This document shows, piece by piece, positions 3,004 to 64,000 of a stretch of DNA of 64,000 bases (within the stretch, counting starts at the first letter, position 1; each line of letters opens with the position of its first letter). Where the stretch lies: NCBI GenBank assembly GCA_035260845.1, contig DATFUL010000003.1, forward strand, positions 11,067 through 75,066. Direction: 5' to 3'. The position numbers and the translations under genes are program-made. The notes beneath the pieces were generated by a model, which was given only the letters and a program-made list of their open reading frames with translations, made no database searches and was not told where the DNA came from. Source of the stretch: Patescibacteria group bacterium. GTDB taxonomy: Bacteria; Patescibacteriota; Microgenomatia; UBA8517.

Positions 3004-3080
3004 CTTGGGGACAATATAAATTAAATTTTCACAGCTGTCAAGAGGTCAGAAAGATATATATTGATGCACTCTGAAGCGAA

Positions 3081-3410: not shown

Positions 3411-3413
3411 ATT

Positions 3414-42009: not shown

Positions 42010-42657
42010 TTATACAGCGTTCTTTCCACTAATCATTACGAACGGAGTTTTGGCGATTATCATTAGATCCATTAAAAGCGATTTCTTACGGGCATAGTTT
42101 GCATCCATTTCGATACGTTTATCAAAATTTATGCTGCTCCTTCCGGAAACCTGCCAAAAACCGGTAATACCTGGCTTAACAGTCTGGGTTTCTTTGACAT
42201 ATTTAGCAGTATTTGGATAAACTTTTTGCTGTTCTTCAAGCTCAAGTGCGTGATATGGCCTGGGACCCACAAGACTCATGTCCCCCTTAAGAACATTAAA
42301 AAGTTGAGGCATTTCGTCGATGGAAAACTTTCTTATAAATTTACCAAATTTGGTAACTCTGGGGTCTTCATGCAGTTTAAAATTAGACCTCTTCCATTCT
42401 GTATAAAGCTTTTTAAATTTTGGGTCCCGTGTTAATACTGAGTCTGAATAAACTGGCATAGACCTAAATTTAAAAAGTCTAAAGATTTTGCCATTTTTAC
42501 CAATTCGTCTCATGTGTGAGTTTCCCGGCTCAACCAATACCGGTCCGGGAGCTGTGATTTTAATAATAATTGCTGTAAGAAGCATTACAGGTAAAAATAA
42601 AATAATTAGGAAAAGAGAGGTGGCAACATCAATTATGCGTTTTAAAAAATCATACAT
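42010..42657 (-). CDS. Monotopic (small, PglC-like) polyprenyl-phosphate phosphoglycosyl transferase, the priming enzyme of glycan assembly
   Basis: Single N-terminal TM plus the bacterial sugar-transferase domain: DEMPQLFNVLKGDMSLVGPRP, PGITGFWQVSGR. Confidence 0.85.
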   Translation of the reverse strand: MYDFLKRIIDVATSLFLIILFLPVMLLTAIIIKITAPGPVLVEPGNSHMRRIGKNGKIFRLFKFRSMPVYSDSVLTRDPKFKKLYTEWKRSNFKLHEDPRVTKFGKFIRKFSIDEMPQLFNVLKGDMSLVGPRPYHALELEEQQKVYPNTAKYVKETQTVKPGITGFWQVSGRSSINFDKRIEMDANYARKKSLLMDLMIIAKTPFVMISGKNAV

Positions 42658-44825: not shown

Positions 44826-45912
44826 ATATATCTAGAGTTTCTTTGGCCATTTTAGCCCAAGAATATTTTTTTACAAATTTTTGCCCCTCCAAAATTTTAT
44901 TTTTTCTTTCATTTGGATTCATTTCTATAGCAGCTTTCATTATTTTCTCGATTGAAGAAAAGTCTAATTGATTAAAATATAGAGCGTGATTAGTGTAGAT
45001 TTCCTTAAAAACAGGAATCTCTGATGCAAGTACTAATGCACCAGCATTCATGGCTTCAAGTCCAGGAAGACCAAATCCTTCAGAAAGAGATGGAAATACA
45101 AACCCTAATGATTTTTGATACAACCCACCAAGTTCATTGTCTGGTACAAATCCAACAAGTTTAACCAAAACCTCAGCCTTCAAGTCAGCTACTATTTTTT
45201 CAAGCCTTTTTGTAAAAACATTTCTGGCAGATGCAATCACTAAAATTATCTTTTTATCACGATTAGTATTCAAAAGTACCAGGGCCTGAATCAATCTTTT
45301 TAAGTTTTTGTGGGGATAAGCATTACCCGTATAAACAAAATAGGGATTTTCAAATTTAAGATTATTTGAAGAAGATATATTGTTATCGAGCCCTTCGTAA
45401 GTCACAGTGATTTTGTTTTGTGTCGTCGGATATTTTTTAACTAGCTCACTTTTTATTGCATGGCTGGGAACTATAATCCTAATGGATTTATTAACAGCTG
45501 TATCAAAAACTAAACGATATGCCGATCTTTTAATAAAATATATTGGAGCGGGTAGTGTTGTTGCCAACATCCCAGACTGCGTATGCATCAAAAGATCGTG
45601 AATCGTAACTACATAAGGCCCTTTGTAAAAAATAGGGACATTGAAATGGGGGAAATGAACCAAATCTGGGTTTTGATTTTTAATAAGACCTGGAAGAATA
45701 AATTGTTCCTGAAAGCTATAATGCCTAAAGTCTGCAAGAATTTTCTGCCAATTACTTGGTAATATTAATGAATCAAAATATTTTTTGCGTAGAAGTATTA
45801 CGTACTGAGTAGTTGTATCAGTTTTTGATAATTCAAGAATTAAATTATTTAGATATCTTCCTAAGCCAGCATTCTCAAGTCCATAAAGACGTGCGTCAAT
45901 TAATAGTCTCAT
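44773..45912 (-). CDS. GT4-family glycosyltransferase
   Basis: C-terminal GFVFPSLSEGFGLPGLEAMNAGALVLASEIPVFKEI (EX7E motif). Confidence 0.8.
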   Translation of the reverse strand: MRLLIDARLYGLENAGLGRYLNNLILELSKTDTTTQYVILLRKKYFDSLILPSNWQKILADFRHYSFQEQFILPGLIKNQNPDLVHFPHFNVPIFYKGPYVVTIHDLLMHTQSGMLATTLPAPIYFIKRSAYRLVFDTAVNKSIRIIVPSHAIKSELVKKYPTTQNKITVTYEGLDNNISSSNNLKFENPYFVYTGNAYPHKNLKRLIQALVLLNTNRDKKIILVIASARNVFTKRLEKIVADLKAEVLVKLVGFVPDNELGGLYQKSLGFVFPSLSEGFGLPGLEAMNAGALVLASEIPVFKEIYTNHALYFNQLDFSSIEKIMKAAIEMNPNERKNKILEGQKFVKKYSWAKMAKETLDIYAEAIKKESSDSLRSGK

Positions 45913-47105
45913 CTTTGCGTATTTAAATAAATTTTATCAAGATATTCACTCATTTTGTCCCAACTGTAATTTTCCTCAACCAACTTTCGCGCATTTTCGG
46001 CAATCCGTTTTGCTTTTTTTGGATCGAGTAATATATCGACAACCCCATCTGCTAATAATTTTGGGGTGTCTCGGACAATAATGTTTAGGCCGTCCTTTGC
46101 TCCCAAACCTTCTGCACCAACTGAAGTGGTTATAAGAGGAAGTTTAGAAGCCATTGCAGCAAAATGTTTTAATCTGGTTCCTCCAGGCCCCTGTAGTGGT
46201 GAAACAAAAACAGAAGATTCGTAATAACATTTACGGATACTCTCCTGGTCATCTTCTTTTAAACTGTCAATAATAATATTTTTTGATCTAAATTTTGAAA
46301 TCTCTTCTGGAATAAACTGGCCAACAATCCATAATTTTGCAGTTTTATTTTTTTCTCGAATAAGTGGAAAGACTTTGTTCAAAAGTAGTTCAGCAGCTTC
46401 AACGTTTTGTAGCCACTTAAAATTTGCAACAAAAAGTATTTTTGGAATTTTATTATTCCAATTTTCTTTTTGTTTAAAAAAATCAAGGTTTACCCCGTTA
46501 GGAACCAGGCCCACATCAAGATTTGGAGCAAGCTTAATCATTTCTTTTTTATCAGCCGCCGATACAGCAACAACCCCATCAGCTTTTTTCCAAAATCTGG
46601 TTTCCCAAAAACGCAACTTTGCAACATCAATCGATAGAACTAATTTCAAAAATGGATTTTTCAGACTTTCAACATAGTGTTTGTAAACCAAATATTCGAT
46701 TGTTTGTTCGACAAGAAGAATTGGGATTTTTGTGTCTGGAATATGAGGCATTACATAAAATGTCTCGGCATGAATTAAATCATACTTATTTATCTTGATT
46801 TCTTCCTTAACAGCTTTTTTTTCTTGAGACGACAGGTTACGGATTACCAAAAATGGATAAGGACCAAATCCAGTCAAAAGTATGTTCCGCAAAGTCCAAG
46901 GTGACTTTGATCTTTTAAAAACCATCACTTTTTTGCAATACTTCTCAAGTTCCACAACAAAACGTTTTTCGGAACTATCTTTTATTAAAGAGAAAAGTGT
47001 GATCTCGTGCTTCTTACTTAAATCACGTATTAAATTATATGAACGGATTTGTCCGCCTGAAGAGTCAGGAAATGGCAAATATGGGGTTAACATTAATATC
47101 TTCAT
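45909..47105 (-). CDS. GT4-family glycosyltransferase
   Basis: C-terminal VFVSPLQGPGGTRLKHFAAMASKLPLITTSVGAEGL (GT4 C-terminal motif), GT-B two-domain length. Confidence 0.75.
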   Translation of the reverse strand: MKILMLTPYLPFPDSSGGQIRSYNLIRDLSKKHEITLFSLIKDSSEKRFVVELEKYCKKVMVFKRSKSPWTLRNILLTGFGPYPFLVIRNLSSQEKKAVKEEIKINKYDLIHAETFYVMPHIPDTKIPILLVEQTIEYLVYKHYVESLKNPFLKLVLSIDVAKLRFWETRFWKKADGVVAVSAADKKEMIKLAPNLDVGLVPNGVNLDFFKQKENWNNKIPKILFVANFKWLQNVEAAELLLNKVFPLIREKNKTAKLWIVGQFIPEEISKFRSKNIIIDSLKEDDQESIRKCYYESSVFVSPLQGPGGTRLKHFAAMASKLPLITTSVGAEGLGAKDGLNIIVRDTPKLLADGVVDILLDPKKAKRIAENARKLVEENYSWDKMSEYLDKIYLNTQR

Positions 47106-48580
47106 TTTGATTTAGATACAGGCTCTGTAAGATTGATTATTATATATTTATCAGTTTTTTCGATTGTCTTGAAGCGAGATTCAATCATTTTTGTGTCAGC
47201 ACTTCCCAAGTCCACTGAAACATAATAACTGGCTCCTTCTTTAATAATATTATCTATTGAATTATCAATTGCGGGCCAACCCTTTCTTTTTGTTTGATAA
47301 AGGAAGGCGGTATCTCCATTATATGGTGCAACAACAATAGAATTTTTTGGCGTAATTTTATCTACCTCATTACCCGCCTCAATAATTTCTGGGTGATTTA
47401 CGATGTAATCGCCTTTAACCTGAAACCAACCCGTAATAAGCATTATTAAAATAGAAAAAATCAGGATCGATCTTGCTAGGATTTTATTAAAAACTTGTTG
47501 ATTCCATAAATAAATACTTCCAGAAGCCAGTGTGAGGGCAATCACGGGAATTACCAATATCTGATAATAGTCGTGCATTACGTTTGCATCAGCAACAAGA
47601 ACTACATAAAAAATAAACCCGGCAAGAAACCAATGAATAAAAAGATTTTTAACTTTAGTGTTTAAAATTCCAAAAACAAATGGGATTAAGCCAAGCGAGC
47701 CAAGAATCAAGTGTCCTAAGCGCTCTCCAAAAATCCAATTCCAATAAGCTGGGTGAAATCTTATTCCGTTGCCGTTAAATGCCCACCAAAAAAGTGGAAT
47801 GCCGGCCGGAAATCTTGATTCCCAAATTCTCCATAGAATAAAGGGTAAAAATGCAATTGCGAAATAAAGTAGTGAATTAAATAAAAGTTTTTTGTTCTTG
47901 AAAATATTCCTAAAGCCATATTTCAGATTAAAAAGATATGCAATTGGAAAAAGATAAAATCCAAGATAAGGCTTAATTAGAAGCATTAAAGCAGCAAAGA
48001 CTGCAGAAAGATATAAATAGGCATTTCCAGAATCATCAAAAAATTTTACAAATGCCCAAATAGAAATTACCCCAAATGTTACTCCCATTGGATCAGGTAA
48101 AATTACACGTGTAAAATAAATATTAAAGGGTATAAACAGATAAAACAAAGCTGATAAAAGCCCGCCAGTACTTCCTAAAAATCTTTTGCCAATTAAATAT
48201 AAAAAGAAAGAAGTGGTAAGTGCAAAAAAAATAGTTATCAATCGTGACCAAACTTCAAGTGATAGTTTGGGAAATGTATTTGTTGATACTGCAGCAATGG
48301 CATTATATATAGGAAACTCAACCATTCTATAGCCATTTGGATTAAAAATACGCGATTGAATACTACTTATGTCGTCAAATTTGGGAATAAGAAGGTTAAT
48401 TCCATTTTGGATATATGTTCGAGTAACTGAAGCCGTGTCCGCTTGGCGCCAGCTATGCCAATCAGCAATTGGGTTATTTATCTTGTAAAGTCTGACAAGA
48501 AAACCAAGAATTAGAATCAATGATAACAAAAAGTACTCTATTTTTTGTGGATTCAGAATATGAATCGATTTATTGTTCAT
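47102..48580 (-). CDS. GT-C-fold membrane glycosyltransferase (PMT/ArnT-like, GT39/GT83-type) that uses a polyprenyl-phosphate-sugar donor
   Basis: About 11-12 TM segments; the first extracytoplasmic loop carries WHSWRQADTASV (an acidic loop motif typical of PMT_2/ArnT-like enzymes); large C-terminal soluble domain. Confidence 0.6.
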   Translation of the reverse strand: MNNKSIHILNPQKIEYFLLSLILILGFLVRLYKINNPIADWHSWRQADTASVTRTYIQNGINLLIPKFDDISSIQSRIFNPNGYRMVEFPIYNAIAAVSTNTFPKLSLEVWSRLITIFFALTTSFFLYLIGKRFLGSTGGLLSALFYLFIPFNIYFTRVILPDPMGVTFGVISIWAFVKFFDDSGNAYLYLSAVFAALMLLIKPYLGFYLFPIAYLFNLKYGFRNIFKNKKLLFNSLLYFAIAFLPFILWRIWESRFPAGIPLFWWAFNGNGIRFHPAYWNWIFGERLGHLILGSLGLIPFVFGILNTKVKNLFIHWFLAGFIFYVVLVADANVMHDYYQILVIPVIALTLASGSIYLWNQQVFNKILARSILIFSILIMLITGWFQVKGDYIVNHPEIIEAGNEVDKITPKNSIVVAPYNGDTAFLYQTKRKGWPAIDNSIDNIIKEGASYYVSVDLGSADTKMIESRFKTIEKTDKYIIINLTEPVSKSK

Positions 48581-49958
48581 TTATATTATTTCTAATCAAA
48601 TATATGGAGTAACCGACCATGAACCAAAATATAGTGGCAAACTTCGATGCTTCGAAAAGATCTATAAATGTAGAACTAATAAAAGTGCCTACTATAGCAC
48701 CCAACATTCCTACTACAAAACCAAGTTCGATAGAAGAAAAGTTGTTTAGATATGGTATTGATTTAATAAACAATTTGCCAATTCTTGCAAATATTAATAT
48801 AAAGGCTAGTAAACCAAGCACGCCAGTTTCCGCAAGCATCCTTAAGAAATCATTATCGGTTGCAAGACCAATCGAAGAATAGCCTGTACCCAAAAGTGGA
48901 TTAACATTAAAGGCGCGTATTGCCGCAGGCCACTCGACATTGACTCTGATTGATGTTGATCTATCTTCAAAAACTGGAATTGGAGTTTGTGTTGCCGCTG
49001 GTAAATTTGACCTAAGAACTGGTAATGCTTGTGTTTCTGCATGAACAATAAAATCATTTTTGAGACTAATAAGTTTTATGGCTTTAATTTTTTGGTAATA
49101 AACATCAATTACTCTACCGAACCTGGCATCCAAACTTGAAGACTGCCCTATTAATAAAAAGCTTATAACAAGAATTACTCCAAGCGCCTTAAATTTTCGA
49201 GCAACAAGAAGCGCAATAGTCACTCCCACAAGGTAAGAAACCTGCGATATTCTGGAAAGTGAATTTATTAAAAGCCAAAGCCCGCCGCCAACTGCTATAA
49301 AAAGCCACACCTTACTCCACTTTTCTTTTATCACAAAAAATAGTGTTATAAAGATAGGAAGAAGCATAACCATAAAAGCAGCGAGGTCATAATGCCCGGC
49401 AAAAGTTGAACTGATATGGCTTCCCGGGGTCCATCTTAAAGCGACACCTTTTGAATACTGATCGTTTTGGGTAATAATTATTGGAAAACTTAAATATCTT
49501 TGCCCAAGGCCGTAAATAAACGCAACAATTGTTACTATAATTAAAATCTTAGTATAGTAAGCCAAGTTCTTTGTAATCTGCTCTTTTGTAAAGAGCGTTA
49601 GAACGGCAAAAAATGGTATTAGATACTCAAGTCTTCTAGCATAATTCAAAATTCCCAAATGCAGTTCAACTGTTTTTGTTAAAAAGACACCTGAAAGAAG
49701 TGAGATTAGGTTAACCCCAAAAAATATCACAAATGCGAGCGTAATTTTGTCCTTAAAAAATGTCTTAAAGTTAGTAATTACTCTAAAAAAAACAATTATT
49801 CCGAGTATTAATAAAAGAAGGTCTTCAAATCTAATAGCGACATAAGTCCCGGGTATTGAAAGTAAAGGAAACTTTGGAAAGAGTGGAACAATGACTAAAA
49901 TTGCAGCCAGCAAATATTTAGGAAGTGTACTTTTAAACCACATATTTATTTTTTCCAT
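48570..49958 (-). CDS. O-antigen ligase/polymerase-like polytopic membrane protein (Wzy_C/WaaL family)
   Basis: About 12 TM segments with one large extracytoplasmic loop in the C-terminal third; no soluble catalytic domain. Family call from topology and context. Confidence 0.5.
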   Translation of the reverse strand: MEKINMWFKSTLPKYLLAAILVIVPLFPKFPLLSIPGTYVAIRFEDLLLLILGIIVFFRVITNFKTFFKDKITLAFVIFFGVNLISLLSGVFLTKTVELHLGILNYARRLEYLIPFFAVLTLFTKEQITKNLAYYTKILIIVTIVAFIYGLGQRYLSFPIIITQNDQYSKGVALRWTPGSHISSTFAGHYDLAAFMVMLLPIFITLFFVIKEKWSKVWLFIAVGGGLWLLINSLSRISQVSYLVGVTIALLVARKFKALGVILVISFLLIGQSSSLDARFGRVIDVYYQKIKAIKLISLKNDFIVHAETQALPVLRSNLPAATQTPIPVFEDRSTSIRVNVEWPAAIRAFNVNPLLGTGYSSIGLATDNDFLRMLAETGVLGLLAFILIFARIGKLFIKSIPYLNNFSSIELGFVVGMLGAIVGTFISSTFIDLFEASKFATIFWFMVGYSIYLIRNNINEQ

Positions 49959-51158: not shown

Positions 51159-51755
51159 CTATTGGAAAAGCCTAGCCCTTCCTAATTTATAACTTGGATT
51201 TTTATTCTTACGCTCACCAATAATTTTTGCTGGAACCCCGCCAACGATGGCAAAATCAGGAACATCTTTTGTGACAACTGCTCCAGCTGCGACAACCGAT
51301 CCGCGACCAACCTTAACGCCAGGCAAAATTATTGCGCGGGGCCCTATAAAAACATAGTCTTCAATTGTTACAGGTTCTGTTCGCGCTTCAAAGTTTTCTT
51401 TTTCCAGATCATGCTCGGAGTTATAAATCATAACACTTGAAGCCATATCAACATGATTTCCAATAGTAAGTTTCGCCCTTCCATCTAAAAACACATGGTC
51501 CCCTATAATTGTGTCGTCACCTATCAATATTCCAGTCGGATCAAAAAAGTTTGCCCACATATGTACTACTGAGCCCTTTCCAATTTTCATCCCTGAAAGA
51601 ATGTAGAAAAATTTTCTAATTGTGTGAAATGGAACATGCGAAACCCACCTTAAAACCATAAGTTCAAAATCCAAAAAGTAATTATAAAAACGATTGAATA
51701 TTTTTGGAATTGCCTGATTAATAGTTAGTTTTTTACCTGTTTTGTCAGTAAACAT
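51159..51755 (-). CDS. Hexapeptide-repeat (LbH) sugar O-acetyltransferase
   Basis: Repeated [LIV]-G-x-x-x-x hexapeptides: IGDDTIIGDHVFLDG, IGPRAIILPGVKVGRGSVVAAGAVVTKDVP, VGGVPAKIIGER. Confidence 0.8.
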   Translation of the reverse strand: MFTDKTGKKLTINQAIPKIFNRFYNYFLDFELMVLRWVSHVPFHTIRKFFYILSGMKIGKGSVVHMWANFFDPTGILIGDDTIIGDHVFLDGRAKLTIGNHVDMASSVMIYNSEHDLEKENFEARTEPVTIEDYVFIGPRAIILPGVKVGRGSVVAAGAVVTKDVPDFAIVGGVPAKIIGERKNKNPSYKLGRARLFQ

Positions 51756-54049: not shown

Positions 54050-55351
54050 TTATTTAGTATATTTTCGAAAAATCACCCCGTTAAAGTTAAATTCCTCGAA
54101 TCTATTATAACCCAGATTCTCTATCTTCTTGCGTACGGAGTCCGTCGGATCAAATATCTCCCAGACATACCTTGATAGCCAGACTTCCGGCTCTTTGCCA
54201 CTAATTTTACTTATATCAACAATCTGCATTTCTTTACCATAATAAATCAATGCTTCTTTTTGAGAATTTGAAGGAGTAATAATTTTACTGTTTCCTATTG
54301 TTTTAGCGGCCAATCTCCAGTCTTCTCTATAAAATTTGGGGGTAAATAAATAATAAAACGATGTTGCAAGATTGATAAGAATAATTATACTAAGAAGGAT
54401 ATTTTTATACCTTCCTGATTTTTCAACTCCGCTAGCAACTAAAATATAAAAAGCAGGTAAGCAAAAAAGAAAACGAAAATAAGACAGTATTGGAATTTCA
54501 AAAGAGACCGCAATCCCAATAAAAATTGGTATTACTAGCCACGCCCAAACCAAATTTGAGCTTTTACGTGCTTTATAAAGGAGGTATCCAAAAATTAAGA
54601 CTAAAAATACAATAATCGCACTATAGATCAGTTTATTTTCAAAACCAACTCTGCCTATTATAAACTTAACAGGGATTAACGCTATATTTTTGTAACTCAA
54701 TTCCCCCAGTGTTCTCCACCAGCCAATAAACGTTGATACAGACTTTGTCCCCCCTAAGAGTTGTTCTAAAAATATGGATTTCCAGACTGTGAAAAAAATA
54801 AGAAGTGGGGTCAAAGAAACTAAAATTTTTTTCCAATCTTTAATTCCAAAAAATAAAAATATTGGAATTATAAATAAGGCTACATAATCCGTCATTCCCA
54901 AAAACATTAATGCTAGCGAAAATAAAATCCATTTTTTATTAATAAATAAATATATTAATGTGGTGACCAAAAAAGCTGCCAACATATACATTCTTGCTTC
55001 CTGAGAATAGTAAATAAAAAGACCAGAAGTAGAAACCAACAAGCTAGAGATTAACCCTACTTTTTGATCGAATATCTTTTTAGCAATTAAATAGGTTAAG
55101 TATATTGTTCCCAAACCAAAAATTATTGACGGAACCCGAAGAGTAATTTCTGAAAAACCAAACGTGCTAGCCCAGAACTTGAGAATAAGATAGTAAAGAG
55201 GAGGGTGAAAGTCTCCAGGTAGAAATTTTGTAAAAATATCGTGTACAGACATCCTAGCGACAAGCGCTGTAGTCGCCTCATCTAACCATAGCGATTGATT
55301 TATTGAAATAAGTCTAAGAACAAAACCGGCCAAAAGTATTAAATAGATCAT
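54050..55351 (-). CDS. GT-C-fold membrane glycosyltransferase, PMT/ArnT (GT39/GT83)-like
   Basis: About 11 TM segments; the conserved acidic DE motif in the first loop (SLWLDEATTALVA) of the type required for catalysis in PMT/ArnT enzymes. Confidence 0.65.
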   Translation of the reverse strand: MIYLILLAGFVLRLISINQSLWLDEATTALVARMSVHDIFTKFLPGDFHPPLYYLILKFWASTFGFSEITLRVPSIIFGLGTIYLTYLIAKKIFDQKVGLISSLLVSTSGLFIYYSQEARMYMLAAFLVTTLIYLFINKKWILFSLALMFLGMTDYVALFIIPIFLFFGIKDWKKILVSLTPLLIFFTVWKSIFLEQLLGGTKSVSTFIGWWRTLGELSYKNIALIPVKFIIGRVGFENKLIYSAIIVFLVLIFGYLLYKARKSSNLVWAWLVIPIFIGIAVSFEIPILSYFRFLFCLPAFYILVASGVEKSGRYKNILLSIIILINLATSFYYLFTPKFYREDWRLAAKTIGNSKIITPSNSQKEALIYYGKEMQIVDISKISGKEPEVWLSRYVWEIFDPTDSVRKKIENLGYNRFEEFNFNGVIFRKYTK

Positions 55352-56184
55352 TTTGAAGACTTTCCGCCAAACAATACTTCCAAAATACCAATAGAAATTC
55401 CTAAATCGTAAACTACTTTAAATACAACAAAAGAATATACATTAGATAGAATTGCCTTATATATTCCTATTAGAATTGATACAGGCAGCGACGATCTTAC
55501 TAGCGCAACAATATACCCCAAACTCCCAAGTTTATATTTTCTTTTTCCCACCCATTTTGCATGCTTAAATATTTCAATTAAATTCGACGGATTTTTATGA
55601 TAAAAAATCGCATCCGGTGCATTTATTGCCTCGTAACCTAACTTTTGAGACAAACTCCAATCGTCATCATAACCCCCAGGAGTAAAACCATTAACTCTTT
55701 CAAATTCACTTTTAAGAATTGCGCGAAAGACGGGTTGGGTATCTGGGTAATTCTTTACATGCCGTCTTTTATTTTCCCAATTCTCGTTTATGTTCCAACA
55801 TTTTGCCCAATTATTTTCCCAATTTGACACATATTCTTCTTTACTAAAAGTGCCTTTTATGTCTCCGTCTTTGATCGGTTTGATAAGTGCGCGAAGAAAG
55901 TTTTTATCAAAAGTCATGTCAGCATCAACAAAAACCAAAATTTCACCTTTTGAGTTCTTCACCCCGAAATTTCTTGCGGCGCCAGCACCTTTGTGATTTT
56001 GTTTAAAAAAATGAAAAATCGAAATTGTTTTTTTAAGGTTTATTAAAATTTCGTCGGTACCATCACGGCTTCCGTCATCAATAACAATAATTTCAAAATC
56101 TTTTTCTGTTTGATATCCCAACGACTCTATACACTTTTCCAAAACTTCTTTTTCGTTATATGTGGGAATTATTACAGAAATCAT
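55348..56184 (-). CDS. GT2 glycosyltransferase with C-terminal TM helices. Candidate polyprenyl-phosphate sugar synthase (DPM1/GtrB/ArnC-like).
   Basis: VIIPTYNE...IIVIDDGSRDGT, DXD as VDAD, followed by two C-terminal TM segments. It sits between two GT-C-type membrane proteins. Confidence 0.7.
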   Translation of the reverse strand: MISVIIPTYNEKEVLEKCIESLGYQTEKDFEIIVIDDGSRDGTDEILINLKKTISIFHFFKQNHKGAGAARNFGVKNSKGEILVFVDADMTFDKNFLRALIKPIKDGDIKGTFSKEEYVSNWENNWAKCWNINENWENKRRHVKNYPDTQPVFRAILKSEFERVNGFTPGGYDDDWSLSQKLGYEAINAPDAIFYHKNPSNLIEIFKHAKWVGKRKYKLGSLGYIVALVRSSLPVSILIGIYKAILSNVYSFVVFKVVYDLGISIGILEVLFGGKSSK

Positions 56185-57455
56185 TTTTCGAGTTTATATA
56201 AAGCATAGCCATCACCAAGATTAGATAATTCAATTACCTTGCGGGCACCGCCCGAAGAAATTTCCCAAATTCCAGAACTATCAAAATTATATCCTTTTTG
56301 ACTGAGAGCATATATAACATTTGCATTAGGATAGTCAATTTCTGAAAGTAAATTCTTTCCATATTTAAATTCAAGATAGTAACGTAAAACATATGCTCTT
56401 TTATCAAAATCTAAGACTTCAGAAACATTAAAATCACCTGTTGTGTCATTTGCAATTATTTTACTAGCATTATCAATATCTGAAACTTTTAGGCCATTTG
56501 GCATCCCTGTTGGAGAATTAAACGATACTTTATATGAAGAAAGACTCAAAAATAAATATAAGCATATAAAAAACGCACCTGCAATTTTATTCCATTTGAA
56601 TAGCCGTACTAGCAGTATTCCACCTAATATTGCAGCAATTGGCCAAAATGACAATAAATAATAATAATTAAAGTTTGCATCACTTCGATGCTGCAAAGTA
56701 TCAATAAAATATTGAAAAATTGTCCTTGTTTGATAAAAATTGTGCCGTAAATCAAAAATCACCAAAGGTAGATTTCCTACTATGATTCCTGAAGCGAAAA
56801 AAATAATACTTTTTAGCTTATTTTTACTTTTCCAAATATTTATTAATAAAACAAAAATAGCAATTGGTGCAAACAGAACTTGAAGACCTATACCTACACC
56901 ACTAAGGAGACCTAAAAGAAAAACATATCCAAACTTTTCTTTTTGAAAATTAAGATATGAAAAATAGAATATTAATATTCCAATCAGTGGAAGATAGTTG
57001 TAACTCCAAATAAAAAGTGAATGGTAAATCATAAAATCGTTAAATAAAAAGAGAAAGGTAGAAGCTAACGCCAACTTTTCCCCTAACGTCTTTTTAATTA
57101 CAAGGTAAATAATAATTCCAGTGAATAAATTTAAAAACGTAAAGAAGATTGTAATGATAATTGGATTGTAGTCAGAGATTAAAAGTAAAGGAACTAACGA
57201 ATAATTAAACAATGCTCCTGAATAAATAACATGCGAATTACTATCTTGCCGGAAATATTCTTGACCCAAAAGGCTTGGTTTCACTTTTATATAGTTAGCT
57301 GAGACAATCAAACTACGAGCTTGCTCCGACCAAAAAGTAACCCTATTTGGATAGTTATAAAACCGCACAAAAGAGGCCAAAATCAATATAACTATTATTA
57401 GAATGTTATTTTTCTTTAATAAGTTTTTCAAAAAGTTCTTCATATTGTTTTGCAA
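56181..57455 (-). CDS. Polytopic membrane protein, possibly a third GT-C-fold glycosyltransferase
   Basis: About 11 TM segments in the N-terminal 300 aa plus a C-terminal soluble domain of about 110 aa; no firm motif. Confidence 0.35.
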   Translation of the reverse strand: MQNNMKNFLKNLLKKNNILIIVILILASFVRFYNYPNRVTFWSEQARSLIVSANYIKVKPSLLGQEYFRQDSNSHVIYSGALFNYSLVPLLLISDYNPIIITIFFTFLNLFTGIIIYLVIKKTLGEKLALASTFLFLFNDFMIYHSLFIWSYNYLPLIGILIFYFSYLNFQKEKFGYVFLLGLLSGVGIGLQVLFAPIAIFVLLINIWKSKNKLKSIIFFASGIIVGNLPLVIFDLRHNFYQTRTIFQYFIDTLQHRSDANFNYYYLLSFWPIAAILGGILLVRLFKWNKIAGAFFICLYLFLSLSSYKVSFNSPTGMPNGLKVSDIDNASKIIANDTTGDFNVSEVLDFDKRAYVLRYYLEFKYGKNLLSEIDYPNANVIYALSQKGYNFDSSGIWEISSGGARKVIELSNLGDGYALYKLEK

Positions 57456-58347
57456 TTATGTCCCAAGAAAACTTTTCGGCTTGTTTCCTTGGTTTACTAC
57501 CCCAATCTGTATCCAACCCCTTTTTTAAGGCAACCGCATATTTTTCAGTATTTATTGGATCAACTAAAATTCCTGCATCTCCTACTATTTCCTTACGGAT
57601 TGGATCGTCACTTGCAACTACAGGGAGGTTTGTAGCCATTGCTTCAACAAGTACATTGCCAAATGCCTCAGATGACGCAGACGGAAGTGTAAAAACATCA
57701 GCTACGCGATAAGCTTCGGGCATTTTATCAAATGGAAGGCTAATAATTTGAAATTTATTTCCCAACATGGCATTCCCCATTTCTTCGAGATTATTCCTCA
57801 AATTTCCGCCGCCGCCAACTATTAATAGACTAAAGTTCTTAAGTTTTGATACAGCTTTGATTGCAAGATCTAATCTTTTTTGCTCTGTAAAGGCTCCCAC
57901 AGCCAACACAATCGGGCTTTTAAGGCTAGTTTTTATAATTTTTCCTTTCTGGGTAAACTTATAAAGATCAACGCCGTTGGGGATCGTTTCTATATTAACT
58001 AATGGGTTAATATTTTTAGCCCAAAGAGCGGCTTTAGAAGTAAGGGCAACAAAAGTATTTGGGAAAGATAAAAGATTTAACTTGTCATCCCAGCCCATCC
58101 CGGATTGCCCGGAAACAATTACTTTTGCACCGGTCAGCCAAGCAATTTTTCTAACAATAAACACCTGAAGTCTTCCGTTTGTTGGAATTAGTATGTCGTA
58201 CCTTTTTTTAAAGAAATCTAAATATTTAATATTACTTATGACATCTACTTGGTGATTTTTAGAAAGCCGACGCGAAAGTTCATAAACAAAAGTCTCAGCT
58301 CCACGAGAAACTTTATTTTGATATTTATTTATAAACGCAATTTTCAT
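57406..58347 (-). CDS. GT4-family glycosyltransferase (short)
   Basis: VFTLPSASSEAFGNVLVEAMATNLPVVASDDPIRKEIVGDAGILVDP (EX7E). Confidence 0.8.
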   Translation of the reverse strand: MKIAFINKYQNKVSRGAETFVYELSRRLSKNHQVDVISNIKYLDFFKKRYDILIPTNGRLQVFIVRKIAWLTGAKVIVSGQSGMGWDDKLNLLSFPNTFVALTSKAALWAKNINPLVNIETIPNGVDLYKFTQKGKIIKTSLKSPIVLAVGAFTEQKRLDLAIKAVSKLKNFSLLIVGGGGNLRNNLEEMGNAMLGNKFQIISLPFDKMPEAYRVADVFTLPSASSEAFGNVLVEAMATNLPVVASDDPIRKEIVGDAGILVDPINTEKYAVALKKGLDTDWGSKPRKQAEKFSWDIIAKQYEELFEKLIKEK

Positions 58348-59690
58348 TTCTTGGGAATTAATATTTCTATACCATCTATTTTTTCTTTCAATTTATAGTT
58401 TAAAATTACATAGTCATAAACTTTTTGTGGCTTATAAGACGCTAGCCCTGATTCTGAATAATCCTGAAGTAAAATTAATCTTGGCTTTGAAGCTATGAGA
58501 TCAGCAACCTCTCTGTCTTGAACACCTTGAATTTCTTGATACCAATAAAGTTGCGGCACCCAAGGATTGGTAGCGGGGAGAGTGTTGGTTAGTGCATAAA
58601 CGTTGTCCCACCAATTCATAACAAATATTTTGTCCCCCGGTGTTGTATTATTTTTAACATAGTTAGCAACATCCGAAACATCGCTTTCAAAAAAACGAGT
58701 GCCTTCCTGCCAATTCCTTATAAAAAAATTGGTGAATAAATAAATACTCACAAGGGCATAGAGTGCAATAAACATCTTTAAAAACCGATCACGTTTGTTT
58801 AGATTAGTAAGGACAATAGCTGATGACATCGCTAAAAACGGAAGACCGGGTTGAAAATGAAAAAATTCAAATCTTGGGTAAGCCGTCATGCTCCCCGCAA
58901 GTGCCCAAAGTGGCAAGTTAGCCACTTTACTTTTCATTTTTATGAAATATGGAATAAAAATCGAAAACGGAAAAAGTGCTATTAACATATTTTTAAGATC
59001 CGGAAACTGAATTTGTCCTTGTGATCTCGGTAAAACAAATACCCCAAACTTAATAGCCCATTCGTAAAAATTGGGCAGATTTCCCCAAAACAATGTTGCC
59101 AAAAAGTAAATTATTACTGTAACAGTTCCCCCATAAATAAAATCTCTATATTTCTTTAATGAAAAAATAATGGGTATTAAAAACCAAATTGCAGTTTGTT
59201 TTGTAAAAAACATAATAACCCAAAGAACTCCTGCCCAAAGATATTTTTTCTTATGAATAAGAAAAAATACAAATAAAGAAATCGGAGCAATCATTGAATC
59301 AAACCAAAGTCCGTTTCCATCATAAAACACTTGCCAAAATACAAATAGTGAAACGGCAATTATTGCAACTTTTTTACTATTAAATAGCAAGCTATTCTTA
59401 TTCGATAACTTATTTATAACCCAAAAAAGCAAGAAGTCTGTAAAAATGATAACAGCCCATGTATAAATCTTTAATTGGAAAACACCGACTCCAAAAACTT
59501 TGTATATGAGTGAAAGTATAATTAATAAATTAGGTGTATGGGCAATTGCGATATCTCTATAAGGCAACAGTCCATGAACAATTAAATAAGGCCAAAGAAG
59601 CATTTCTGGCCATGCCGTAAATTTTAATTTTAATAACAAGAATAGATGTAATGCTAGAATGATTACCAGGAGCGAAGGAAATTTCTTCAT
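58344..59690 (-). CDS. Polytopic membrane protein, possibly a GT-C/GT87-like mannosyltransferase
   Basis: About 12 TM segments and a C-terminal soluble domain; no firm motif. Confidence 0.35.
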   Translation of the reverse strand: MKKFPSLLVIILALHLFLLLKLKFTAWPEMLLWPYLIVHGLLPYRDIAIAHTPNLLIILSLIYKVFGVGVFQLKIYTWAVIIFTDFLLFWVINKLSNKNSLLFNSKKVAIIAVSLFVFWQVFYDGNGLWFDSMIAPISLFVFFLIHKKKYLWAGVLWVIMFFTKQTAIWFLIPIIFSLKKYRDFIYGGTVTVIIYFLATLFWGNLPNFYEWAIKFGVFVLPRSQGQIQFPDLKNMLIALFPFSIFIPYFIKMKSKVANLPLWALAGSMTAYPRFEFFHFQPGLPFLAMSSAIVLTNLNKRDRFLKMFIALYALVSIYLFTNFFIRNWQEGTRFFESDVSDVANYVKNNTTPGDKIFVMNWWDNVYALTNTLPATNPWVPQLYWYQEIQGVQDREVADLIASKPRLILLQDYSESGLASYKPQKVYDYVILNYKLKEKIDGIEILIPKK

Positions 59691-60391
59691 ATTTTTTTTG
59701 CAATTATTGTCATACTGTCACCCATATTTAACATTGTAGACACAAACGATAATGGGAAGGTTAAAAGGTCATACAAGAATGATTTTCTTTTTAATTCTAA
59801 GAGGGGATTTGAATATTCAAAAAGACCAGAGCGCGACTGCCACAAAAGTATTTTAAACCCGGTATTTTTAAATACTTTGAAAATACTATCTTTTGTAAAC
59901 TGCCATTTATGCTCATTTGGTAATTTGTAGGGCCAATGGTCACCAAAAATCTTTGCTGGAATTCCACCGGCATTTGGAACATCAACAAAAACAAGCCCAT
60001 TATTTTTTAACAAACTGTTTACTTTTTTTAGAACAAAGATAGGATCTTCCATATGCTCCAGGGTATGGTTTAATATAACTAAATTAAATGAATTTTTTGG
60101 AATATCCAACTTTTCAAAATATCCTTTATATACCTTTATCCCCTTTTTCTTAGCTATTTCAGAACTACCGGAGGGTTCTACCCCAAAGACTTCAAATCCA
60201 TTCTCCTTAAATATTTCTAAAAAAATCCCGGTTGAAGAACCAATTTCCAAAACTCTGCCTTTTTTAATATATCTTTTGATTAATTTGTAACGTGTTAAAA
60301 AAATATTTCTGAAAGTCGATGAATACTTTTCATAATCATAATCTCTATGGTATTTTTTATAGTTAACGTCCATTAATATTTTAATATCCAA
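59687..60391 (-). CDS. Class I SAM-dependent methyltransferase
   Basis: Motif I RVLEIGSSTGIF, motif post-I FEVFGVEPS, LVILNHTLEHM. Confidence 0.8.
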   Translation of the reverse strand: MDIKILMDVNYKKYHRDYDYEKYSSTFRNIFLTRYKLIKRYIKKGRVLEIGSSTGIFLEIFKENGFEVFGVEPSGSSEIAKKKGIKVYKGYFEKLDIPKNSFNLVILNHTLEHMEDPIFVLKKVNSLLKNNGLVFVDVPNAGGIPAKIFGDHWPYKLPNEHKWQFTKDSIFKVFKNTGFKILLWQSRSGLFEYSNPLLELKRKSFLYDLLTFPLSFVSTMLNMGDSMTIIAKKI

Positions 60392-61217
60392 CTCTACCTA
60401 TCCATATTTTTCTTTTTATTTTCCTTAGTGGAGTTTCTACAAATGCCCTAGTTTTAAATTTAAAACTGGAAATACCCCAGGGGCTTTGTATAAATTCCGG
60501 CTTGGTTTTAAATAAGACTTCAGGATAGAAAAAATCCTTAGGAAAATTTTGACCAAATTCATATTTATATTTTTTGTTTCTTTTAATTACATTTAAATCG
60601 TCTTTTAAGGCCCTTCCACGCGGAACAAAAGTGGCGTGAAGATATGGAGCATCTATAAATTCTATTTTGTCTATATTTCTATCTTGAATCATTTTATTTT
60701 CAAAGTCAGACCATCCCCAAACACCATGAACTCCCTGTGAATGAAGACCTGGAATACTTCTATTTATAGCCCGCAGATTGTAATGTCCAACTCTACTCCC
60801 AAATTTATAACGGCCGGCTGAACTATCTTGGAAATGAAATATATCCCCAACTAAATTTAATGTTGGAACAACGACTGATTCAAGACTGGGATTAGTCTCT
60901 ATTGTCTTTACAACACTTACGATTGAGTTATTCCACCAAATTTCGTCAGCATCGACCATCAAAAACCAATCCGACTCTGTTGCGTCAAGCATTTCTTGGC
61001 GTACCTTTGTAAAGTCCGTACTAGTACTTATATTTCTCTCTTTAAAAATAATTTTTTCCGGATAAAGCTTTTTTAATTCCTTTGCAATTTCGATACTGCC
61101 ATCAGTGCTACCTGTATCCCAAAGCAAAATCTTGTCTACAAAATTAATTACTGAATTTACAGAAAACCATAACCATCTGGCCTCGTTTTTAACTAATGTG
61201 TGAGCCCAGATCTCCAT
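60381..61217 (-). CDS. GT2-like glycosyltransferase (KNE-type N-terminus)
   Basis: TLVKNEARWL...ILLWDTGSTDGS and a DADE acidic motif (MVDADEIWW). Confidence 0.5.
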   Translation of the reverse strand: MEIWAHTLVKNEARWLWFSVNSVINFVDKILLWDTGSTDGSIEIAKELKKLYPEKIIFKERNISTSTDFTKVRQEMLDATESDWFLMVDADEIWWNNSIVSVVKTIETNPSLESVVVPTLNLVGDIFHFQDSSAGRYKFGSRVGHYNLRAINRSIPGLHSQGVHGVWGWSDFENKMIQDRNIDKIEFIDAPYLHATFVPRGRALKDDLNVIKRNKKYKYEFGQNFPKDFFYPEVLFKTKPEFIQSPWGISSFKFKTRAFVETPLRKIKRKIWIGRVGY

Positions 61218-61267: not shown

Positions 61268-63157
61268 ATGTGTGGAATTGCAGGCAAGGTTTACTTCACA
61301 AAGAATAAAGATGTCCACCCACAGGAAATTAAATTGATGACCACTTCAATTGCTCATCGCGGTCCTGATGATGAAGGAATCTTTATTTCAAAAGACAAGA
61401 AGGTTGGTCTTGGAAGCCGCAGGCTTGCAATAATAGATTTAAGTCAGAGAGGACACCAACCGATGACCTATTTAAATAGATATACGATCACATTCAATGG
61501 TGAAATATATAATTTTCAATTCGAAAAAGAGAAACTAAAAAAGTTGGGTTATCAATTTAATTCAGACTCAGACACTGAAGTAATCTTGGCCCTATATGAT
61601 AAATATGGGAAAAAGTGTTTAGATCACCTAAGAGGTATGTTTGCTTTTGCAATTTATGATGAGGTGCAAAGAACAATATTCTTGGCAAGAGACAGAATCG
61701 GCAAAAAACCTCTTAAATATTTTCTAAATGATGATGTCTTAATATTTGCTTCAGAACTTAAGGCAATCCTAACCCAATCGGGAGTAAAGAAAATAGTTGA
61801 TTACAAAGCGATTCAACTTTATATGACTTATGGTTACACTCCGGCTCCGTACACAGGTTTTGAAGGCATTAAAAAACTAGAACCCGGAAGTTATATTTTT
61901 ATCAACTTAAAAAGTCGGTCTTTTGAAAAAATTAGATATTGGGAGCCAATGTTTGATCACAAGCTAAACTTATCCGAAAAGGAGTGGTGTAAAAAAATAT
62001 TAGAGACCCTTGAGGAATCGACCCGTCTTAGAATGATTGCGGACGTACCAGTTGGAGCATTTCTTTCTGGAGGAGTTGATAGCAGTGGAGTTGTCGCAAC
62101 CATGGCTGGACTATCAACAAAACCAATCAAGACTTTTACTATTTCTTTTACCGATAGTGATTTAAATGAGAGTCAGCATGCAGGAAGAATTGCTAAACTT
62201 TACAAAACTGATCACCATATACTTCCCGCCAAACCACAATCAACCGATATATTGCCGTTTTTGGCTAAACAATATGAGGAACCTTTCGCAGATGCAAGCA
62301 ACGTAGTTACCTATATGGTTTCTGAAATGACCAGGAAATTTGTGACAGTAGCATTAAATGGAGATGGTGGGGACGAAAACTTTGCCGGTTACCCAAATAG
62401 ATACATGCGATTAAAACGAGATGTAGATTACGACAACTGGATACAAGACTTAAGACCATCAGCGGTAGTAGCTTTAGAGGCATTATCGAAAATGGGTAAC
62501 TTAAAAACAGTTTCTAAAGCTAAAAAATTCTTTGACAATGCTAAAAAACCAATTTATGAAAGATTTGCCTCATATAATAAAATATTCGACCAAGAGGAGA
62601 TTTTTAAGTATTCAAAAGGAAAATTACTTGAGGAGCAAAATAACAATAACCCATATCAAATCGTTGACGAATGTTTTAGTAATTTTGAAGGAAAAGATCT
62701 AAAAGACGCAGGACTCAAGTTTGACCTTATGTATTTTTTACCGGACCAACTCCTTGCAAAGGTAGACATTGCATCAATGGCAGCATCTCTGGAAGCCCGA
62801 TCCCCTTTACTTGATCAAAACATGATAGAGCTTGCTGGTACCATTCCATTTAACCTCAAAGTAAAACATGGGGAGTCAAAGTACATACTAAAAAAGGCTT
62901 TTGAAAAGATAGTTCCCAAAGAGAATCTCTACCGACCCAAGGTAGGATTCACAATTCCACTTGAGAGATGGTTCTCTGGAAAATTAAATAGTTATGCAGA
63001 AAGCATTCTACTTTCTAAAAATACACAAATAAATGAACTTCTAGATAAAGATTATATTAAACGAATGGTTGAGGATAAAAACAAAAGTGAAGATTTTGGC
63101 CCCAGACTCTGGTCTCTTATGTCTCTTGAACTCTGGTTTAGGTCTTATTTCAACTAA
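61268..63157 (+). CDS. asnB: Asparagine synthetase B-type glutamine amidotransferase. In this context it is likely a glycan-modifying amidotransferase.
   Basis: N-terminal nucleophile MCGIAG, PP-loop SGGVDSS, 629 aa. Confidence 0.85.
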   Translation: MCGIAGKVYFTKNKDVHPQEIKLMTTSIAHRGPDDEGIFISKDKKVGLGSRRLAIIDLSQRGHQPMTYLNRYTITFNGEIYNFQFEKEKLKKLGYQFNSDSDTEVILALYDKYGKKCLDHLRGMFAFAIYDEVQRTIFLARDRIGKKPLKYFLNDDVLIFASELKAILTQSGVKKIVDYKAIQLYMTYGYTPAPYTGFEGIKKLEPGSYIFINLKSRSFEKIRYWEPMFDHKLNLSEKEWCKKILETLEESTRLRMIADVPVGAFLSGGVDSSGVVATMAGLSTKPIKTFTISFTDSDLNESQHAGRIAKLYKTDHHILPAKPQSTDILPFLAKQYEEPFADASNVVTYMVSEMTRKFVTVALNGDGGDENFAGYPNRYMRLKRDVDYDNWIQDLRPSAVVALEALSKMGNLKTVSKAKKFFDNAKKPIYERFASYNKIFDQEEIFKYSKGKLLEEQNNNNPYQIVDECFSNFEGKDLKDAGLKFDLMYFLPDQLLAKVDIASMAASLEARSPLLDQNMIELAGTIPFNLKVKHGESKYILKKAFEKIVPKENLYRPKVGFTIPLERWFSGKLNSYAESILLSKNTQINELLDKDYIKRMVEDKNKSEDFGPRLWSLMSLELWFRSYFN

Positions 63158-64000
63158 ACCAGTAATACTTAATTGCAATTGTCCACATATAAATTGCAAG
63201 TAAAATATTGGTTACTGCAAGTGTTATAGCTGGGCCGATTACTCCAAACTTTGGTATTAAAACAAGATCGAATCCAAACATAATGGCTAACTGAACAACT
63301 GAGAAAAATCCAATAAATTTTGGTTTTTTCATTGAATAAACAATTGCCGAAACAGCAGGTACTGAGAGAATGAATGGAATGTTGGCAAGTGCCAAAGCTC
63401 TAAAGACAGGAACTGAATCAAGGTATTTTGGAAAAATTAAAAGCATGAAAGGTTTTGCGATTATTGCCCAAAAAATTATTCCAAAAATTATAGGAATAGT
63501 AACTAGAACAGCTTTAAGTATGTAGGTTCTTTCTTTTTCTTTATTACCAAAACCGGCTAAACGTGTTGCAAGTACTGCAGAAAAACTACCCCCAAGAACA
63601 ATAATAAAAGACGCCAACTTAGAAGGAATTGAATAAACAGCAGTAGACAAAGCTCCTAGTAGAGCCGCCATCATTTGTACATCCAAGTTTCCCGAAACCG
63701 CTGAAGTTATCCTGCTTACCCCAAGCCATCCAGAAAACCTAAAAAGCTTTTTATATATCTCAAGTTCCGGTTTAGTCCTAAAAAAATCAGTGCCTACAAG
63801 AATAAATCCAAAAAAACCTGCCGCCAATCCACCAAATATGTATGATCCAAAGACATTATATAAAGAGGTCCCTCCTATATATATTAGTATAAAAAGCGCA
63901 CCAAGGCGTGTAATCATAAAAACCAAATCAGTTGAGACCGCACCTAAGAAATTCTTCCTAGCCTGAAGAACATATGGCAAAAACATCCACAAAAAGAAGG
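63150..64000 (-). CDS. Partial CDS (C-terminal about 280 aa; continues past the window end). Wzx-like oligosaccharide flippase (MOP superfamily).
   Basis: About 8 TM segments in the visible part, Gly-rich amphipathic helices; the frame stays open to the window edge. Confidence 0.5.
   Translation of the reverse strand, partial: FFLWMFLPYVLQARKNFLGAVSTDLVFMITRLGALFILIYIGGTSLYNVFGSYIFGGLAAGFFGFILVGTDFFRTKPELEIYKKLFRFSGWLGVSRITSAVSGNLDVQMMAALLGALSTAVYSIPSKLASFIIVLGGSFSAVLATRLAGFGNKEKERTYILKAVLVTIPIIFGIIFWAIIAKPFMLLIFPKYLDSVPVFRALALANIPFILSVPAVSAIVYSMKKPKFIGFFSVVQLAIMFGFDLVLIPKFGVIGPAITLAVTNILLAIYMWTIAIKYYWFS

Follow-up and report, generated by a model that had tools for sequence, protein, structure and literature searches.

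A conserved glycan locus of Microgenomates bacteria contains a two-gene unit in which a family 2 glycosyltransferase (the focal GT2) lies directly upstream of a polytopic GT-C glycosyltransferase (GT-C433). We describe it here from a window of 64,000 nucleotides (64 kb), chromosomal DNA of a Microgenomates-group member of the Patescibacteria (candidate phyla radiation, CPR). In the explanation we favour, to which we give an even chance of being right, this is a surface-glycan locus built on Wzx/Wzy logic and conserved across Microgenomates, in which the focal GT2 would act on a membrane-bound sugar acceptor and the GT-C enzymes outside the membrane. The original prediction, made from the letters of the DNA, was different: it took the GT2 for a polyprenyl-phosphate sugar synthase making polyprenyl-phosphate-mannose for the GT-C enzymes beside it. 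All five open reading frames (ORFs) that it named were confirmed on the minus strand where it had placed them; the synthase that it saw in the GT2 was not.

The focal GT2 was expected to combine a DXD motif with C-terminal transmembrane (TM) helices. The motif is present as DAD at residues 87-89, with D89 invariant and D87 nearly so among 51 relatives. The helices (220-230, 233-247 and 252-273) are present too, but they are moderately hydrophobic (mean Kyte-Doolittle (KD) values 1.35, 1.77 and 1.82), and that they span the membrane is itself a prediction. They carry conserved K256 and D260 and follow an amphipathic, basic interface helix (202-213, hydrophobic moment 1.52). Other membrane GT2s, however, also combine a GT-A domain, DxD and C-terminal helices, so that this architecture is not diagnostic for the polyprenyl-phosphate glycosyltransferases GtrB, ArnC, DPM1 and PpgS (PI-GTs). 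The residues conserved across the GT2 family (D37, H64, R71/N72, D87xD89, E117, N121, W130, R154, D174/D175, H196, N198, P199 and W211) agree with the motif order D, DxD, (E/D)D, xRW known from CesA/PgaC-like enzymes, W211 being preceded by K/R210.

Domain models and profile searches assign the two halves of the protein differently. Pfam PF13641 (Glyco_tranf_2_3) scores above its cutoff (E 3.5e-9) over residues 2-140 only, and the NCBIfam models reach no further than residue 123 for ArnC (from 2), 108 for PpgS (from 4, E 2.8e-5) and 165 for AglJ. In a PDB search with a profile of the 51 relatives, the full GT-A domain was aligned just by chondroitin synthase (4-182) and the Pyrobaculum calidifontis enzyme PcManGT (4-202), whereas the alignments with DPMS, ArnC and GtrB end at about residue 110-116. 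Profile-profile comparison by hhalign gave the same picture. E. coli ArnC covers residues 5-116, GtrB/YfdH 5-108 and the soluble GT2 WcaA 2-121; E. coli PgaC aligns over 5-217 (Prob 99.6, E 1e-23), placing YDDDW of the focal GT2 (D174/D175) on TED and HAKW (W211) on QRLRW.

The acceptor half alone (residues 105-218 or 105-278) obtained a signal from PgaC only (E 2-4e-4). There was none against ArnC, GtrB, WcaA, WcaE or three Microgenomates PI-GTs (Prob <1), nor against a profile of 60 PI-GT sequences (Prob 0.1-0.2), and a PDB search with the C-terminal half alone returned chance matches, such as diphtheria toxin and ThiG. With the full-length profile, the alignment to the PI-GT profile does extend to residue 165 and includes the FRA motif. 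Genuine PI-GTs of these bacteria behave differently in the same tests: a 225-aa Woesebacteria homologue matches PpgS over model positions 2-218 of 226 (E 1.6e-51), and Microgenomates proteins of 234 and 388 aa have domain-wide matches to AglJ and ArnC. Taken as sequence evidence, the acceptor-half result is moderate.

The structural comparison points the same way. In Foldseek searches with the AlphaFold2 (AF2) model of the GT2 (pLDDT 95.9), the best TM-scores were to Chlorella hyaluronan synthase (0.62) and PcManGT (0.60), and GtrB, ArnC and DPMS were absent from the best 50 matches. W211 lies where CesA-like enzymes stack the acceptor sugar. In inverting GT-A enzymes the Asp that corresponds to PcManGT D223 and SpsA D191 is described as the general base activating the acceptor nucleophile (PMC12595478). 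PI-GTs would be expected to share the acceptor half and the juxtamembrane helices JM1 and JM2, and to have an Arg pair that binds the acceptor phosphate, R122 and R200 in GtrB (PMC4728340). The focal GT2 contains no JM1-type insertion, and no equivalents of GtrB R122 and R200 could be aligned in its sequence; its conserved basic residues are R71, R154 and K/R210. Through its alignment with PgaC and PcManGT, the GT2 types largely as polysaccharide-synthase-like, and its assignment as a DPM1/GtrB/ArnC-type synthase is not supported by sequence or by fold ranking; the manufacture of polyprenyl-phosphate-mannose loses its footing with it. We place the protein instead, with evenly divided confidence, among putative membrane-anchored inverting GT-A enzymes of a minimal PgaC/CesA/PcManGT-like type.

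Could such a catalytic domain belong to a processive enzyme? The GT2 would then be a processive synthase and its polytopic neighbour the channel or co-polymerase, a split CesA-like synthase-translocon in which a GT-C-fold protein handles the chain. The CesA/PgaC/hyaluronan synthase (HAS)-like domain, with hyaluronan synthase as best TM-score, would suit this idea. So would the GT2 model, in which just 2-3 helices follow the interface helix, too few for a multi-helix transmembrane channel for polymer translocation, and the near-obligate coupling to a polytopic partner described below. Against it, the GT2 lacks the Q of QxxRW that processive enzymes typically have, GT-C433 retains catalytic GT-C hallmarks (an invariant DE, D155 and several Arg), and the locus already has Wzx and Wzy_C. 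We know of no precedent for a split synthase-translocon of this kind, and we consider it highly improbable.

GT-C433 was correctly recognized as a GT-C enzyme with a loop-1 DE motif. Its PMT_2 match exceeds the gathering score. LWLDEA occupies residues 21-26. All 31 orthologues keep its D24 and E25, and likewise D47, H49, P50, R120, D155, Y156, R234 and R293. Loops rich in K/R (91-97, 138-140, 170-175, 261-265 and 311-316) alternate with loops bearing D24/E25, E118 and D155. Because of this positive-inside pattern the DE loop would face outwards, as had been expected, and the protein is predicted to have 11 TM helices, N-in/C-out, which puts the acidic motifs outside together with a ~95-residue C-terminal domain.

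Fold comparison was used for GT-C433 because it has no PDB relative by sequence: single-sequence and profile PDB searches with GT-C433 and with its paralogue P424 returned no match, even at E<=1. In the Foldseek list obtained with an AlphaFold model based on the 31 orthologues (pLDDT 85.9, pTM 0.86), the top 33 PDB matches are all GT-C enzymes, 23 of them at E<=0.001, with no Wzy-type protein among the 33. ArnT (5f15, E 5.9e-6, TMq 0.56) and ALG12 (TMq 0.60) are joined by ALG9, STT3/PglB/AglB, Pmt4, AftA and PimE. On the predicted model, GT-C433 falls into the PMT_2 group of GT-C enzymes and is structurally nearest ArnT. It does not belong to GT83 at the sequence level (family profile against E. 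coli ArnT by hhalign, Prob 0.5, E 0.12).

The original prediction had likened the protein to Pmt as well as to ArnT. In the fold comparison ArnT is the best match, and Pmt structures rank 21st (Pmt4 9i5k, E 2e-4), 26th (6p25) and 27th (9i5l), the latter two at ~0.02, behind ArnT, oligosaccharyltransferase (OST) and ALG12. We rejected GT39/Pmt membership, since GT-C433 matches PF13231 (PMT_2) only and has no match to PF02366 (PMT) or PMT_4TMC. These results also bear on the idea of GT-C433, by itself or together with its paralogues, as a protein O-glycosyltransferase of the Pmt, TMEM260 or streptococcal Ser/Thr-rich-region type, acting on secreted, S-layer or pilin proteins. The NCBI record names the protein 'glycosyltransferase family 39', the PMT_2 match and the presence of Pmt4 among the structural matches fit, and there are known bacterial systems in which GT-C enzymes glycosylate proteins (PMC11727336, PMC12041528). 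However, Pmt entries are outscored by ArnT, OST and ALG enzymes, the Pmt domains are missing, and the gene lies mid-way in a cluster of phosphoglycosyl transferase (PGT), Wzx, Wzy_C and GT4 genes. We find this explanation improbable; a protein acceptor is possible and is not favoured by the context.

GT-C433 is one of four GT-C paralogues in the locus (433, 424, 448 and 492 aa), all unrelated to the Wzy_C protein. We aligned GT-C and Wzy_C families from the ORFs of fetched loci and compared the profiles by hhalign. P424, the large polytopic protein on the other flank of the GT2, scores 20.5 bits against PMT_2, under the gathering cutoff of 26.1, and aligns with the GT-C433 family over 307 columns (Prob 97.8, E 6.6e-13) and with GTC492 at E 6.3e-9; it has FWSEQAR where GT-C433 has LWLDEAT. 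It is a variable member, present in 22 related loci. The window copy of P448 has no Pfam match; its orthologues match PMT_2, it aligns with the GT-C433 family over 361 columns (Prob 97.8, E 7.3e-13), and it has a conserved WPE after TM1. GTC492, also foreseen as a GT-C, has WRQADT after TM1 and matches the GT-C433 family with Prob 98.1 and E 1.2e-13. As a negative control, the four GT-C families showed no homology to the Wzy_C protein of the locus (Prob 0.2-0.4). A Wzy or EpsG identity of the membrane proteins was rejected on this result and on the sub-threshold EpsG match of GT-C433 (E 0.0066, 16.1 bits against a cutoff of 30.1).

The pairing of the focal GT2 with GT-C433 is strongly conserved. 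A scan of one genome per species yielded 80 loci, every one of Microgenomates type. In 66 of the 80 species the gene immediately downstream of the GT2 encodes a GT-C433 orthologue, and in 10 more a single gene separates the two (76/80). ATGA start/stop overlaps at both junctions mean that the three focal genes are probably translationally coupled, and the 4-nt overlap between GT2 and GT-C433 recurs in 36 of the 66 adjacent pairs. In six contexts examined the wider order is also kept: Wzx, AsnB, GT2, (methyltransferase), P448, GT4, (P424), focal GT2, GT-C433, GT4, GT4, acetyltransferase, ..., Wzy_C, GTC492, GT4s. An order that repeats in 80 species-level genomes is more than chance. The conserved coupling suggests that GT-C433 acts on a residue or intermediate made by the GT2, or that the two proteins form a complex. 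Many metagenome-assembled genome (MAG) records titled 'uncultured Gammaproteobacteria bacterium' (L012, L013, L019, L021 and others) bear this Microgenomates-type locus at 50-67% identity; these titles look like placeholder or erroneous taxonomy.

More distant relatives of the GT2 (37-41% identity) lie in other polysaccharide loci, one with a PMT_2 gene two genes away and another with none within 5 kb. We also found a fusion of GT2 and PMT_2 domains (P0256, 699 aa, L088 6001-8100). On its contig the GT4 and hexapeptide genes are split into fragments, which suggests indel errors, and we downgraded the Rosetta-stone argument because the fusion may be a frameshift artefact. Separately, in L043 the focal GT2 orthologue forms the C-terminal end of a 676-aa ORF (2741-4771), which may be a GT4+GT2 fusion like P0276 (Glyco_transf_4, Glycos_transf_1 and GT2 domains).

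Several of our observations weigh against a GT2 that acts on a sugar acceptor. Tight GT2-GT-C coupling is what the donor-synthase/GT-C pairs ArnC/ArnT and CsbB/YfhO display (PMC8035078). The likeness of the acceptor half to PgaC, tested alone, is moderate (Prob 35-45%), and the Q of QxxRW is not conserved in the focal family. GtrB too retains an essential Asp, D157, so that a conserved Asp alone is compatible with a phosphate acceptor (PMC4728340). The acceptor of PcManGT itself is not settled (PMC8993221). Finally, neither the 64-kb window nor 74 of the 80 loci (±4 kb) yielded a canonical PI-GT, so that this search turned up no donor source for the four GT-Cs of this genome.

Three of these points, the tight coupling, the unsettled acceptor of PcManGT and the failure to find a PI-GT in the window, feed the alternative closest to the original prediction, namely that the GT2 is a divergent, non-GtrB polyprenyl-phosphate sugar synthase, possibly for mannose, that works on the cytoplasmic face and supplies GT-C433 and its paralogues outside the membrane, after the pattern of ArnC/ArnT, GtrB/GtrC, CsbB/YfhO or Ppm1/Pmt. 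The GT2 would bring to this role its hydrophobic C-terminal helices, its basic amphipathic helix and a full-length profile alignment with PI-GTs that reaches the FRA motif; the neighbourhood adds ManC, four GT-Cs that need a donor, the ATGA-coupled pair kept in 76 of 80 species and, for what a possible artefact is worth, the P0256 fusion. However, homology to GtrB, ArnC, DPMS, PpgS and AglJ ends after the nucleotide-binding half, and the acceptor half is silent against the PI-GT profile while it gives a signal with PgaC. No conserved Arg was seen at the positions aligned with the GtrB arginines and there is no JM1-type insertion (PMC4728340), distant GT2 relatives are not always beside a GT-C, and no GtrA-like flippase was found. 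Moreover, in 6 of the 80 loci a genuine PI-GT gene stands no more than 4 kb away from the focal GT2, and hence accompanies the GT2 rather than substituting for it. Three such Woesebacteria homologues adjoin the focal GT2 family at L002 6137-7303 (+), L017 7255-7932 (-) and L085 332-1036 (+); the 388-aa form has an N-terminal methyltransferase-like remnant. We judge this synthase unlikely. A bolder version, in which the GT2 founds a second donor-synthase lineage, derived from CesA/PcManGT independently of GtrB/DPM1 and hard-wired to a GT-C, in a lipomannan-like multi-GT-C assembly that has neither a canonical PI-GT nor a GtrA flippase, seems to us quite unlikely.

We return to the Wzx/Wzy-type surface glycan. 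From families, folds, motifs, the topology pattern and synteny we infer a pathway, and with it every substrate, the order of steps, the sugars and the final acceptor (a wall glycopolymer or a protein). A small WbaP-type PGT would prime undecaprenyl phosphate, and six GT4s and two GT2s would lengthen the lipid-linked glycan on the cytoplasmic face. There the focal GT2 would most likely add a beta-linked sugar to an undecaprenyl-diphosphate-linked intermediate; bare polyprenyl phosphate is probably not its substrate. The Wzx flippase would export the lipid-linked glycan, the Wzy_C protein would polymerise or ligate it, and the four paralogous GT-Cs would add sugars on the outer face from polyprenyl-phosphate-linked donors. 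Characterised ArnT/PMT-like enzymes use polyprenyl-phosphate sugars outside the membrane. Such use by outer-face GT-Cs agrees with the general scheme of extracytoplasmic glycosylation in PMC8035078. The donor would probably come from a DPM1/PpgS-type synthase encoded elsewhere in the genome and, in some relatives, within the same locus; enzymes like PpgS form a family with a wide distribution in Patescibacteria. For mannose as the sugar transferred, the sole support is that ManC is present, and ManC could equally feed the GT4s.

The polysaccharide-type setting and the GDP-mannose pyrophosphorylase that had been recognized in it are both borne out (Table 1). The glycan locus runs from window position 39985 to beyond 64000, at least 24 kb and ~20 genes, with a G+C content of ~32-39%. 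It comprises a PGT, six GT4s, two GT2s, an acetyltransferase, a methyltransferase, an amidotransferase, ManC, Wzx and Wzy_C, a parts list most likely for making a Wzx/Wzy-dependent surface glycan in a monoderm bacterium. The Pfam match of Wzx begins at model position 129 and its orthologues have 429-431 aa, so that the gene is cut by the window edge and the locus extends past 64000.

Table 1. Genes of the glycan locus (window coordinates).
Gene product	Position	Strand	Evidence
GT-C433, PMT_2-superfamily GT-C glycosyltransferase, 433 aa	54050..55351	-	Pfam PMT_2 E 2.6e-11; AF2 model; Foldseek
Focal GT2, 278 aa	55348..56184	-	Pfam Glycos_transf_2 E 1.3e-34; AF2 model; hhalign
P424, GT-C paralogue, 424 aa	56181..57455	-	hhalign to GT-C433 family
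GT4 glycosyltransferase, conserved locus member	57406..58347	-	Glycos_transf_1 E 4.6e-26
P448, third GT-C paralogue, 448 aa	58344..59690	-	hhalign; orthologues match PMT_2
SAM-dependent methyltransferase	59687..60391	-	Methyltransf_23 E 1.7e-25
Second GT2, soluble	60381..61217	-	Glycos_transf_2 E 3e-11
AsnB-type glutamine amidotransferase	61268..63157	+	Asn_synthase E 6e-89
Wzx-type flippase (Polysacc_synt), cut by window end	63150..63992	-	Pfam match starts at model position 129
Two GT4 glycosyltransferases, downstream of GT-C433	51757..54011	-	Glycos_transf_1 E 3e-35 and 5.3e-21
Hexapeptide-repeat O-acetyltransferase, WcaF-like	51159..51755	-	Hexapep E 6.1e-15; WcaF-family subfamily E 9.5e-29
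Peptidase S51 (dipeptidase E-like)	50529-51155	-	inside glycan locus
199-aa protein without Pfam or NCBIfam match	49961-50560	-	hydrophobic N- and C-terminal segments, soluble middle
Wzy_C protein, polymerase/ligase/O-oligosaccharyltransferase-type	48570..49958	-	Wzy_C E 8.5e-10
GTC492, fourth GT-C, 492 aa	47102..48580	-	PMT_2 E 6.4e-15
Three GT4 glycosyltransferases	43698..47105	-	
Mannose-1-phosphate guanylyltransferase (ManC, guanylyltransferase domain only)	42665..43807	-	NTP_transferase + ManC_GMP_beta-helix
Initiating polyprenyl-phosphate hexose-1-phosphate transferase, small WbaP/WcaJ-type catalytic domain	42010..42657	-	Bac_transf E 6.2e-59; TIGR03025 E 2.8e-74
DUF4012 protein, locus end	39985..41988	-	DUF4012 E 1.2e-22

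Further details concern individual genes. ManC matches the guanylyltransferase part of TIGR01479, the GMP/PMI model (positions 2-352 of 467, E 2.7e-78). Its listed ORF overlaps the upstream GT4 (43698-44825, -) by 110 nt, and the match to the domain begins only at residue 19-20; the real start of the gene is therefore probably further downstream. The second GT2 has no hydrophobic or TM segment, and the AsnB-type protein scores 560 bits against TIGR03108, under the cutoff of that model. The GT4 next to P424 has counterparts at the equivalent position in L001, L002, L004 and L006, and the position of the 199-aa protein, which is not GtrA-like, is taken in L002, L004 and L006 by genes for proteins of 179-190 aa without a Pfam match. 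The peptidase S51 gene is in L002 too and is absent from L004.

Outside the glycan locus the window carries a cell-division and cell-wall cluster (FtsZ, FtsA, a penicillin-binding protein (PBP) and fused Mur enzymes), aminoacyl-tRNA synthetases and one tRNA. The Mur fusions join a MurC-type Mur ligase to MurB (18413-20614, -; 733 aa) and a Mur ligase to a nucleotidyl transferase domain (20598-22658, -; 686 aa). A LytR-CpsA-Psr (LCP) family protein is encoded at 29573-30631 (+), ~10 kb off the glycan locus. In Gram-positive bacteria the LCP family joins lipid-linked glycopolymers to peptidoglycan, and its presence near the locus fits a wall-anchored product.

CPR bacteria are uncultured, with tiny genomes and essentially uncharacterised envelopes, and no paper on this locus came up in our literature search for GT-C loci of Microgenomates or other CPR bacteria. 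At least 24 kb and ~20 genes are a heavy investment for a genome with no known contig longer than ~0.6 Mb. The closest relatives of the focal proteins are in Woesebacteria and Microgenomates. The locus is shared by Woesebacteria, Blackburnbacteria, Daviesbacteria and Chisholmbacteria, and this breadth suggests that it makes a core surface structure, perhaps one for host attachment. There is also a caution for annotation: membrane helices and a GT-C neighbour do not by themselves make a GT2 a donor synthase of the GtrB type. Were the donor-synthase reading true, it would mean a new route to lipid-linked sugar donors. Under either reading GT2 and GT-C433 are a well-defined and highly conserved two-gene unit.

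How does this unit compare with known systems? As in GtrB/GtrA/GtrC, CsbB/GtcA/YfhO, GacI/J/K/L and ArnC/ArnEF/ArnT (PMC8035078), a GT2 with membrane helices is directly upstream of a polytopic GT-C. As in these three-component systems, the pair lies inside a cell-wall glycan locus of a monoderm-type bacterium, and the acidic loop-1 motif of the GT-C faces outwards in our predicted topology. The differences are that the GT2 here does not appear to be a PI-GT and that there are four GT-C paralogues, not one. In addition, a phmmer search with E. coli GtrA (YfdG) found no GtrA-type flippase in the window or in 90 loci; the small ORFs of the window are assigned otherwise, and the sole flippase-type gene of the locus is the Wzx-type Polysacc_synt.

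For the GT2, the nearest counterpart is PcManGT (PDB 6YV7), likewise a 'minimal cellulose-synthase-like' membrane GT2 from a multi-GT glycan cluster. To our knowledge no pairing of PcManGT with a GT-C has been reported. It consists of a GT-A domain and three antiparallel membrane helices (PMC10569066). PcManGT is archaeal and shares ~18% identity with the focal GT2, and its acceptor is not experimentally fixed (PMC8993221). With PgaC/IcaA, BcsA, NodC and hyaluronan synthase the GT2 shares DxD, a (D/E)D ~86 residues on and a W 36 further. Unlike them it has no Q of QxxRW and no channel, is far smaller (278 aa), and sits in a Wzx/Wzy-type rather than a synthase-dependent locus.

GT-C433 resembles ArnT (GT83) in its loop-1 acidic motif, its PMT_2 match and its C-terminal domain, periplasmic in ArnT and predicted to be outside here. 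The ArnT structure has 13 TM helices. E. coli ArnT has 550 aa, as against 433 aa and ~11 TM helices in GT-C433, and the lipid A acceptor of ArnT is excluded for an enzyme of a monoderm CPR bacterium. Mycobacterial and corynebacterial lipomannan and lipoarabinomannan (LAM) offer a parallel for the locus as a whole: cytoplasmic GT4 steps are followed there by several GT-C mannosyltransferases fed by Ppm1. In the window no Ppm1-type synthase was found, and a PGT, Wzx and Wzy_C are present. Nevertheless, the two share the same broad composition, with many GT4s, several paralogous GT-Cs and a supply of GDP-mannose, here encoded in the locus itself.

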